A stretch of 64,000 nt of DNA from Escherichia coli. Its GTDB lineage: Bacteria; Pseudomonadota; Gammaproteobacteria; Enterobacterales; Enterobacteriaceae. The position numbers were made by a program. Location: NCBI RefSeq assembly GCF_041248615.1, contig NZ_CP158426.1; one strand, given 5' to 3'. Position 1 is the stretch's first letter, and each line of letters opens with the position of its first letter. Below are positions 60,601-64,000 of the stretch, one piece after another.

Positions 60601-63600
60601 GAAAATCACAAGTCGATGTACTCTGTTCAAATACATCATTAATGAGCTTCGTTAATGATGTTGAAAAAGGCATAAAGATTGATCGTGATAATATTCTTTA
60701 TGTTTTACTTTCAAAAGTTCACTTATCACATAAAAATGATTTGTTTAATGGAAAATCTTATCTAAATAAGTTGAAGGATTTATTTAATAAGTTTACCTCT
60801 AATTGCGACGAATATGAGTATTTTAACACTAAAAAAAGTATTGATGAAGTTCGAAAAGATATCATCTGTGGCAACAGAGAATGGTTACTGAAAAAAAACT
60901 TTATTGACTCAAAATTAGTTCCTGAAGTAGACCATTTACGTGTTGCAATGTCGCATTCAAAAGCGATCTCTTATGATCTTTTTGATACTCTTGTTGAACG
61001 TGATTTTGTTGAACCTCATGAATTATTTAATCTAATTGAATCCCGTGTACGTAATGAGTTAAACAATAAAAACTTCCCTTTCTATTATGTAAGACGACAA
61101 GCCGAAATTGACTTGCGCAGAGAGACAAGAGGTGAGTTTGAAATTACTCTCGATGAAATTTACGAAAGATTTCCAAGATACTTTGATCTTACTTTAGAAC
61201 AACTAGAGAAGATAAAAAATATAGAAATAGATGCTGAAGTCGAACTCGTTCATCCGAAAAAAGAAATGGTTCGTGAATTTTATTTTTCTCAAATGATTTG
61301 TGAAAGTGTATCTATCATTACAGATATTTATCTTTCTCAGAATGTTATTGAGCGTATTTTACAAAAAGTAAAAATTAGTGGTTACAATAAATTATTGGTT
61401 TCAGCAGAAACTAAAACAAGAAAACATAACGGAACTATTTATCCTGAATATTTGAAATATATAAGAGATAATTTTGATATTAATGCAGGACAGGCTCTTC
61501 ATGTCGGTGATAATAAACAAGCTGATGGTGATATGGCTAAAAAACATGGCATAAAAACATATGTATTTCAAAAAGCGATTGATAATTACAAAAAATCTTT
61601 AATTGCTGATATTTTACGTTCCAGTATTAATCATCCAGGTATTTCGAGTTCTGTTATTAATGGTTTGTTTGCTAACAAATATCACGCAGGACACTGGTTT
61701 AAAATTAACAAGGAATCAATTTTTAATGCTGACGAATATAATTATGGCTATATGGCAATAGGGCCTCTTGTTGTTGGCTTTACTCAGTGGTTGTATCGGC
61801 GGGTTAATAAATTAGGTATCAAAAAATTATATTTCTTATCCCGCGATGGATGGATTCTTAAAAAAACATTCGATTATTTTTATCCTGAATCATCATCTGG
61901 CATCAAGACCGAATACCTGTACAGCTCTCGTCGAACTGCAATGGTAGCATCGTTAAGAAATATTGATGATATTATTGAAGTTGCCTCTCAAAACTTCAAT
62001 GCTAGAAAGCTAAGTGACTTTTTATCTACTCGTTTTGGGCTGGATGTGGATACTGTTAAAAAATCTGTTCTTGAAAAATATAATTACAAGCATGACACTA
62101 TTGTTTCTCCTTATTTTGAATTTGGAAAGCTGATTGGTTTTTTAAAAGATATTCATCATACAATATTGTCTAATGCAAAAAATGAACGTGAAAGCTATAT
62201 CGATTATTTACGAGAAACTGGATTTGAAAATGATTGCTTAAATGGCGGTGCTACTGTTGTTGATATTGGTTACAGTGGTTCCATGCAATATTATTTAAAA
62301 AAAATACTGCAATGCCCTTGTGTGAACGGATTTTATTTTTTAACACATCACCATAGTCGTGATTATTTTTCAAATGATCATTTTGAAGGTTTCTTGCAAA
62401 ATCTTGATGATCATAAGATCGCTTATAGACATGGATTAAATGATCATGTGTTTATTTTTGAAGCAGCATTAAGTTCCCCTGAAGGAAGTCTGATTAAAAT
62501 GGAAGGGAAAGGTCAAGAAAGAGAAATGATTTTTCTCGAGGCAGAAGAAGAGATTGTAAGAAAAAATGCTCTATTAGGAACACATCGTGGCGTAATGGAC
62601 TTTGTTCATGATATCAAAACTCGTTTTGGTTCTTACTTTAAATACATTGAATTTTCTCCTATTCTTTCTTCTCAACTTATTTTGAATTTTGCGAATAATC
62701 CCAACGGTATAGATGCAGGGATGTTTGCTTCTCATGAAGTCGAAAATGTTTTTGGTGGGGGGTCTGTATGCTTAATTTCGCCTTTACTAGATTGCTATAA
62801 GGACTCTAATGGCACCATTAACCCTAAAATTATCGATGAGTTATTAAAAGCATCTAAATGGAAGAGAGGTGCCAGTGCTTATTATAACTTAGTCAATGGA
62901 ACTCAACCGCGAGTTAATCCTGCTAAAATGCCAGCGCCATCTGTTAACCCAGTTGTTGTGAAGCAAACGCCACAAACTACTTATGCACATCCTTTAAAGA
63001 CAACTACGCAGCGTAAACTTGCTAAGTTAAAAAAAGACCCATATTTATTCTTTAATGATTCCCAAAAACCTCTTTTAAAAAGTTTACGATTGTTCTTCAA
63101 AAATACATCAAAGCTTAATTAATATAATGTGAGTCGCACTATGGTGTGACTCTTTTTTATATGTCAGTGATAGTTATTAATGAAATATTTAATGCGCGAA
63201 GGTGTACGATTTTTACAATATTTAGAGACTGGTGGGTCAAATGAGTATTTCTTTGAAAAATATTGATTTTGCTAAAGGTCCTGTTGATTCCCTCCATCAT
63301 GATTATTACTTATGGCGAGGGAAGAACATTGAGGATAAAAGACTTTTTCTCGTTTTCTCATCTCGGGGAGCAGGTCCTGGAGAATTTAGTTTTTTCAAAA
63401 CTTTTGATGCGCTTAATGTAAATGTTTTGCATGTTACACCCTCTGATTTTTCATGGTACCAAAAAGGGTTAGTCGGTTTAGGGAGTGATTTGCCTTCTGC
63501 ATTTAAAGCCCTATCTGACCGAATAGATAATTTCTGTATTTATCATAAAATAAAACAAATTATCTGTGTAGGGGCTTCCATGGGAGGATATGGTGCTTTA

Positions 63601-64000
63601 ATTTATGGGGCTTTATCTAGTAGAAAAATAAAAACAACACTTATTCTTTTTGGCACCGAAACAATATTAAAACTTCCTTATTCTAAAAGTTCTGAGAGTG
63701 AATTTGATATTCTCAAAAAATTTAAAGATGTAAGGTTTCTAGATTATTCTGATCTTGATGTGAATATGATATTTGGTGAGTTTGATATTGTAGATACTTA
63801 TTGTGCTTTATCGATGCGACATGATCGAAATTTTTCATTTTTTTCATGCACTAGCGCCTCACATGTTGTTCCGGAATACTTAAATAGACAAATTGGAATT
63901 GTTAATTTTTTTACAGACTTCTTATCGGGTGGAAGATCTTTTATTGGAAGAGGCCACATTGCTTCTGAGCTTTATCCTGAGGATATTTCTCCTCTTCTGT

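Follow-up and report, generated by a model that had tools for sequence, protein, structure and literature searches.

The 64,000-nucleotide stretch of Escherichia coli DNA analysed here (contig NZ_CP158426.1; hereafter the window) ends in the start of a group 2 capsule (kps) locus, which occupies its last 7 kb, and breaks off inside the second gene of region 2. The initial annotation had described this gene as encoding an alpha/beta-hydrolase-like protein and had suggested a role in polymer modification. This raises the question of which reaction such a protein may catalyze in a locus where its only region 2 companion is a large capsule polymerase. The gene product is probably a cytoplasmic, acetyl-coenzyme A (acetyl-CoA)-dependent O-acetyltransferase of the capsule polymer, docked via a C-terminal tail of tetratricopeptide repeats (TPR). 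As a predicted function, polymer modification is supported.

The window contains the first 253 of the 329 codons of the target gene (positions 63241-64000, plus strand, as are all features below). Its ATG start codon (63241-63243) is preceded by an in-frame stop six codons upstream and, at a distance of 4 nt, by a Shine-Dalgarno-like GGTGGG that was read directly from the sequence (63231-63236). As annotated initially, the frame is uninterrupted over more than 250 codons; indeed, no stop occurs in frame +1 over the 253 codons to the end of the window, whereas the other five frames contain 10 to 32 stops each, with a longest open stretch of 77 codons. At the local base composition, the probability of 253 open codons is about 8e-9. 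The DNA was also correctly described as equally AT-rich as the large region 2 gene before it, the GC content being 0.336 in the target and 0.315 in the preceding 1169-amino-acid gene, as compared with 0.56 in the gsp genes at the flank. A search with a 901-nt query spanning the target region against 5426 complete E. coli genomes retrieved 21 matching genomes (identity of at least 99.4%, seven at 100%); all 21 loci were chromosomal and several belonged to sequence type 131 (ST131) O25b:H4. In the matching genomes, the target frame runs for 76 further codons to a TAG stop, giving a protein of 329 amino acids, and neither a stop codon nor a frameshift occurs just beyond position 64000. The sequence of residues 254-329, which lie outside the window, was taken from identical genomes; the full-length gene would end 230 nt past the window, at the equivalent of position 64230. 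There, the gene is annotated as an intact coding sequence (WP_000028052.1, 'hypothetical protein'; positions 14142-15131 of locus L001). A pseudogene or a chance open reading frame (ORF) was ruled out by this intact coding sequence in identical genomes, by the existence of relatives, and by the stop statistics. Region 2 of the 100% identical NZ_LT599825 consists of exactly two genes between kpsT and kpsS, coding for the 1169- and 329-amino-acid proteins. The target gene is the second and last of these, and the convergent genes kpsS-kpsC-kpsU-kpsD-kpsE-kpsF come next.

The target protein (37 kDa, pI 8.6) consists of two parts, namely an alpha/beta-hydrolase domain (residues 1 to about 238) and approximately 2.5 TPR repeats (residues 246-328). 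An AlphaFold2 model, built from the homologue alignment, predicted a canonical strand-elbow-helix topology with high scores (pLDDT 96.3, pTM 0.93), the modelled core strands comprising residues 23-26, 34-39, 62-65, 106-112, 131-137, 172-179, and 198-203. This model agrees with the hydrolase or acyltransferase fold proposed initially. Conservation was counted in an alignment of 90 homologues. The GxSxG-like motif GASMGGYG, noticed initially, covers residues 111-118 (63571-63594), and its first six residues, G111-A-S113-M-G-G116 (63571-63588), form the nucleophile elbow between strand 106-112 and helix 114-125 of the model. No substitution occurs at G111, M114, or G115, and 88/90 homologues have S113. 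The elbow aligns with the GSSKGG motif (S114) of CsaC (SacC/MynC; PDB 6YUO/6YUQ/6YUS/6YUV), which O-acetylates the capsule of Neisseria meningitidis serogroup A. Both the conservation and the model predict Ser113 as the acyl-accepting nucleophile. The triad acid is either D182 or D185 in the motif G179-E-F-D182-I-V-D185 (63775-63795), judging from conservation (G179 in 88/90, D182 in 71/90, and D185 in 89/90 homologues) and from a hidden Markov model (HMM) alignment; the motif follows strand 172-179. His208 (63862-63864; 88/90), located after strand 198-203 of the predicted secondary structure, is the predicted general base. The order nucleophile-acid-His is that of alpha/beta hydrolases, with the acid and the His on loops after strands in the model. 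A strand ending in the conserved F39-S40 (LFLVFSS, 63343-63363; F39 in 84/90 and S40 in 67/90 homologues; model strand 34-39) probably provides the oxyanion loop, by analogy with F40 of CsaC, to which F39 would correspond. In addition, a near-invariant W72-Y73 pair was found (63454-63459; W in 88/90 and Y in 85/90 homologues), as well as a conserved loop E140-T-x-L-x-L-P-x-S-(R/K)149-S150 between strands 6 and 7 (63658-63690; E140 in 71/90, L143 in 78/90, P146 in 68/90, R or K at position 149 in 53 and 16 of 90, and S150 in 73/90 homologues). By analogy, this loop is the probable acceptor or lid region.

The C-terminal TPR module starts within the window (63976-64000) and lies mostly past it. 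Its helices comprise residues 246-254, 260-272, 277-289, 293-306, and 311-328 of the model. A phmmer search of PDB matched residues 247-320 to the TPR domains of OGT and PEX5 (E values of 1.3e-3 to 0.4, the best being that of OGT). The Pfam models TPR_1 and TPR_2 match residues 278-310 below threshold (16.8 bits versus a cut-off of 27.8), and 60/90 homologues reach TPR_2 at E<=0.01. No signal peptide or membrane segment was predicted in the target protein, which, together with the position of the gene between kpsT and kpsS, is consistent with a cytoplasmic location. A secreted or periplasmic esterase was ruled out, because a signal peptide is lacking.

Neither Pfam nor NCBIfam contains a model dedicated to the family of the target protein. 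A Pfam check did return the alpha/beta-hydrolase families Abhydrolase_1 (18.4 versus 25.8 bits) and Hydrolase_4 (16.9 versus 27 bits) besides TPR, but all of these matches were below the gathering cut-offs. With the whole protein, phmmer against PDB matched only TPR proteins, and the profile of the full-length alignment was likewise swamped by them; the alignment was therefore trimmed to residues 1-238, from which a catalytic-domain profile was made. By word-indexed searching, 11 relatives with identities as low as 35% were retrieved, and when 1.84 billion representatives were searched exhaustively with HMMER, 199 representative clusters matched at E<=1e-10. Two groups of characterized acetyltransferases were retrieved by the catalytic-domain profile. 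First, it matched SacC (CsaC) with E values of 9.8e-5 and 1.7e-4 and with the longest aligned stretch of all matches. Second, it matched Gap2/Asp2 of the accessory Sec system, with E values of 5e-3 and 0.04. Indeed, the Pfam Asp2 model (PF16929) is matched by 9/90 relatives (best E value 5e-7) and by 10/30 in a smaller set, and the NCBIfam Asp2 model (TIGR03712) by 7/30 family members. Scores of relatives amount to 27-29 bits, the cut-off being 28; the target itself gives no PF16929 match and scores 12.6 bits (E 0.051) against a TIGR03712 cut-off of 210. No literature mention of the RefSeq accessions of the two region 2 proteins was found.

The HMM alignment allowed pairing of the target residues with those of CsaC, for which roles have been assigned (PMC7501274), with low confidence beyond the elbow, around the triad extension and R148. 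The nucleophile S114 of CsaC corresponds to S113 and the triad acid D198 to D182, at the conservation given above, and the acceptor-positioning R148 corresponds to R/K149 (69/90 homologues). In CsaC, the triad is extended by H201-Q138-Y79; the equivalents in the target protein are the conserved Asp185, Glu140, and the Trp72-Tyr73 pair, the latter falling within about one residue of Y79 if the alignment is extended without gaps. Hence, as far as can be read from the sequences, the CsaC-equivalent positions are conserved and their chemistry is partly different.

In several longer relatives (P0079, P0088, P0153, P0036, and P0089), the catalytic domain is joined with a TupA-like ATP-grasp domain, with an AlgX-type SGNH acetyltransferase domain and DUF1796, or with a sulfatase, and this set includes a tandem-duplicated catalytic domain with long TPR arrays. 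The fusion partners are glycan-modification contexts.

Genomic association points to the polymerase as the partner of the target protein. Homologues with 43-71% identity, from Kluyvera intermedia, Rahnella, Cupriavidus taiwanensis, and two further assemblies, all occur in kps-type loci, where they directly adjoin a polymerase homologue of 1153-1181 amino acids in either orientation. The same pair is present in a Vibrio hyugaensis locus, the target homologue being 33% identical (E 4e-47). All eight homologues with informative gene neighbours, at 33-71% identity and including three metagenomic loci, adjoin a polymerase homologue in this way, and six occur in complete kps loci of other bacteria. 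More distant settings were found too. [quoted passage not shown] Conversely, neither a partner gene nor a remnant of one was found beside the polymerase homologues of Yersinia intermedia (60% identity) and Aeromonas veronii (48% identity), both in complete kps loci. Because some polymerase loci lack the partner, the target gene fits an optional decoration and not a factor needed for polymerization.

Several points weigh against an acetyltransferase. Every Pfam or NCBIfam match of the target protein, including those to TPR, XcbB/CpsF, PhaC, and Asp2, is below the curated cut-off. The lead of CsaC over generic esterases is small, and the sequence similarity is centred on the elbow. Compared with CsaC, Q138 is replaced by Glu and H201 by Asp, so that the fine mechanism need not match. 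Furthermore, a gene for an LbH hexapeptide protein lies directly 3' of the target homologue in both L007 (4943-5644) and L008 (2901-3584), which points either to a pair of acyl decorations or to a function other than acetyl transfer in these distant homologues. Finally, within NCBIfam the family is closest to XcbB/CpsF (NF033892), matched by 12/30 members with a best E value of 3.5e-8, and the meningococcal XcbB/CsxB is without functional assignment (PMC11666461).

The latter relationship raises an alternative, namely that the target protein is a polymerase accessory factor similar to CsxB/XcbB, held by its TPR part and involved in initiation, processivity, or chain-length control, with the triad serving another step, for instance at the lipid end. 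CsxB/CsxC region 2 proteins have been considered as transition-transferase candidates, and in TagF-like capsule polymerases, processivity and the use of acceptors are governed by TPR domains (PMC11666461). The tight adjacency of the target homologues to the polymerase across genera would agree with such a role, as would the separate hexapeptide acetyltransferase beside some relatives. However, the target itself scores only 14.9-15.7 bits for XcbB/CpsF, where the cut-off is 125, and the match is confined to residues 104-125; the strict Ser-Asp-His set indicates acyl chemistry and not glycosyl or phosphoryl transfer. Moreover, the partner-free loci of Y. intermedia and A. veronii indicate that this class of polymerases does not need the partner. 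An accessory factor is therefore unlikely.

A second alternative retains the acyl chemistry in the reverse direction. The target protein would then act as an esterase in the cytoplasm, stripping the polymer or a precursor of acyl groups in a de-O-acylation or editing step. Such de-O-acylation is carried out in sialic acid capsules by the esterase domain of NeuA. Region 2 of this E. coli locus, however, contains no acetyltransferase to supply a substrate for an esterase; the nearest characterized relatives, by structure as well as by sequence, are transferases; and the acceptor-positioning R148 of CsaC is aligned with a conserved basic residue. This makes hydrolysis quite unlikely and argues for a transferase. 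As to the group transferred, the acyl donor is not fixed by the data, and the ATP-grasp, SGNH, and sulfatase fusions point to varied glycan-modification chemistry. An acyltransferase with the same mechanism may thus transfer another group, such as a propionyl group or an aminoacyl ester, or may use a non-polymer acceptor. This is very unlikely, as the characterized relatives CsaC, OatC, and Asp2 all use acetyl-CoA, and, among the esters carried by E. coli capsules made of Kdo and ribose, O-acetyl is much the most frequent, for example in K13 and K20.

For the preferred capsule O-acetyltransferase, the following course of reaction may be proposed. The acetyl group would first be transferred from acetyl-CoA to Ser113, with His208 acting as base and Asp185 or Asp182 as acid, and with an oxyanion hole near Phe39/Ser40 and Met114. 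It would then be passed to a sugar hydroxyl of the nascent polymer made by the 1169-amino-acid polymerase, in a ping-pong mechanism as in CsaC, of which the oxyanion hole involves F40 and K115 (PMC7501274). The TPR repeats would most likely serve to attach the enzyme to the polymerase or to the polymer, comparable with the TviD-TviE pair. Acetylation would take place at the cytoplasmic face, before export by KpsMT.

The acceptor may be predicted from the partner gene (59613-63122, GC content 0.31), which codes for the 1169-amino-acid multidomain capsule polymerase. Its parts are a Kdo-transferase-like N-terminal domain, a phosphoribosyl phosphatase module of the haloacid dehalogenase (HAD) type, a C-terminal domain, and a tail of amphipathic character. 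Residues 424-786, spanning the HAD motif SYDLFDT and the region that follows, match Bcs3 of Haemophilus influenzae type b (E 3.9e-28); the Bcs3-like module is the phosphoribosyl phosphatase part of ribofuranosyltransferases that depend on phosphoribosyl pyrophosphate. Based on the Kdo-transferase-like domain and this ribosyl module, the polymer is predicted to contain Kdo and ribofuranose, as in the K13/K20/K23 group, of which the members differ only in O-acetylation (PMC12887879). The polymerase was not identified with 'E_coli_O25b', the KrkA homologue with 41% identity of the K13 paper, because its N-terminal domain shares only 17% identity with KrkA (9yfx) and has a structure closer to that of WbbB GT99; it is thus no orthologue of KrkA. 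By sequence, this N-terminal domain gave no match in PDB at E<=10.

As to the K type, Gladstone et al. (Nat Microbiol 2026) list, in a supplementary table of genes, a 990-bp 'Alpha/beta hydrolase' gene and a 3510-bp HAD-like gene for the same two K loci (KL). From our own count of the columns of this table, which could be off, the locus appears to be KL120 or KL128. These are recently catalogued sister loci, present in ST131 O25:H4 clades C1 and C2, to which no K serotype or structure is attached (Gladstone et al.). In KL43 and KL44, a large HAD-like polymerase gene is followed by a gene of a different acyltransferase family in the second slot (Gladstone et al., supplement). Thus, the second slot of a two-gene region 2 is recurrently an acyltransferase, as in KL43, KL44, and K13 with vatD.

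Upstream of region 2, the window contains region 3 with kpsM and kpsT (57874-59426), coding for the ABC exporter, as deduced from ORFs and the RefSeq annotation of the identical locus. RefSeq places the kpsM start at the equivalent of position 57976, as opposed to a longer, GTG-initiated ORF from 57874. An ops element, GGCGGTAG (57936-57943), the RfaH loading site, lies approximately 33 nt upstream of the RefSeq start and within the longer ORF. It is the single exact match in the window, a count that has no significance alone, and its meaning rests on its position and on what is known of group 2 region 3 leaders, in which an ops element and RfaH-dependent read-through are established. The position of the element supports the shorter kpsM and an RfaH-dependent leader. 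By analogy, the kpsM-kpsT transcript would be expected to read into region 2. Between the polymerase and target genes, a hairpin with a 9-bp GC-rich stem and a TTTTTT run (63131-63158) was found as a terminator-like site (RNA fold -16.8 kcal/mol, z -4.06), 9 nt past the polymerase stop and 83 nt before the target ATG. It resembles an intrinsic terminator located within region 2. The region 3 promoter and RfaH-dependent read-through would carry RNA polymerase across it. In the Kluyvera locus the hairpin is not conserved, and in locus L009 there is only a weak one; lacking conservation in Kluyvera, it was not counted as part of the mechanism.

On the other side of region 3, gspK, gspL, and gspM of type II secretion (GC content about 0.55-0.56) end at position 56825 and are followed by an AT-rich stretch that includes the ops element. 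Past the window, 3' of kpsF, the identical locus contains an IS110 fragment and the remnant of a CP4-57-like island (L001 23928-28837) with cbtA/cbeA toxin-antitoxin, antirestriction, and DUF4942/DUF957/DUF987 genes. This island-type flank fits horizontal acquisition of the kps locus. In addition, a gene for a right-handed beta-helix (NosD/Beta_helix) protein of 331-340 amino acids is placed between the polymerase gene (or its partner) and kpsS in Y. intermedia (L011 9845-10861) and Rahnella (L005 11036-12031). The Yersinia copy has an N-terminal hydrophobic stretch, and the gene is absent from the E. coli locus.

O-acetyl groups often define capsule epitopes as well as recognition by phages or antibodies, and the serogroup A and Vi vaccines require O-acetylation (PMC7501274, PMC8760489). 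If the only non-polymerase gene of region 2 indeed encodes the O-acetylating enzyme, the capsule would be made by a two-enzyme system of a backbone polymerase and one decoration, which could be rebuilt in vitro. A broader proposal can be put forward only tentatively. The target protein may be the E. coli member of an undescribed, widespread, cytoplasmic alpha/beta-hydrolase-plus-TPR family that docks on multidomain polymerases and O-acylates the growing chain. The locus would then specify a new O-acetylated capsule of Kdo and ribose in ST131 clade C, made by a Kdo-transferase-like polymerase without the canonical Asp nucleophile. The gain in knowledge is modest, because the enzyme class is already known and no current understanding is overturned; O-acetyl decoration of a capsule is ordinary in kind. 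Indeed, CsaC and OatC are known capsule O-acetyltransferases of the alpha/beta-hydrolase type and K15 ORF5 has been predicted as such. New here is a divergent version with a TPR tail, in a K locus without known chemistry.

Comparison with these and other systems indicates which features are shared. The target protein is only 14% identical to CsaC. The latter has no TPR module and forms tetramers, whereas the target protein carries a TPR tail; the acceptor of CsaC is a polymer of N-acetylmannosamine-1-phosphate, whereas that of the target protein is predicted to be a Kdo/ribose polymer; and O-acetyltransferase activity is demonstrated for CsaC and predicted for the target protein. E. coli K15 ORF5, meningococcal OatC/CssE, and the target protein represent one enzyme class. 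K15 ORF5 is an alpha/beta hydrolase with a GGSMGG elbow, itself only predicted to be an O-acetyltransferase, and the class is defined by a GXSXGG elbow with a Ser-His-Asp triad (PMC7387560); the target protein has the elbow GASMGG and the set S113, D185/D182, and H208. Like the target gene, the K15 gene is located in region 2 of an E. coli group 2 locus (PMC7387560). The elbow of K15 ORF5, GGS179MGG, is comparable with GAS113MGG of the target protein, but the position of the catalytic Ser (179 versus 113) indicates another domain layout, and no TPR tail is reported for K15 ORF5.

The combination of a catalytic domain and TPR repeats is the sole feature that TviD, the Vi antigen O-acetyltransferase of Salmonella Typhi and Bordetella, and the target protein have in common. 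The TPR part of TviD is unnecessary for catalysis and is required to bind the polymerase TviE (PMC8760489), and it served as the model for the TPR tail of the target protein. The catalytic domain of TviD, however, is SGNH-like according to modelling and has a DXXH block together with a dyad or triad of the Cys-His type, unlike the GxSxG alpha/beta hydrolase found here. Moreover, TviD possesses three to nine TPRs and is membrane-associated, whereas in the target protein the repeats number about 2.5 and a membrane segment is not predicted. Among curated sequence families, Asp2/Gap2 (PF16929; PDB 6LNW and 6OYC) comes closest to the wider family. Asp2 O-acetylates N-acetylglucosamine on serine-rich glycoproteins by means of a Ser-based triad (PMC5578698, PMC7948813); unlike the target protein, it comprises about 510 amino acids with an extra N-terminal domain, has a role in protein export, and uses a glycoprotein acceptor. 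Finally, region 2 of K13, with KrkA and the hexapeptide-repeat vatD, follows the same locus logic as the present one, in that one large Kdo-transferase/ribosyltransferase polymerase is combined with a small acyltransferase that sets the serotype-specific O-acetyl pattern (PMC12887879). The fold of VatD is a left-handed beta-helix and is unrelated to that of the target protein.

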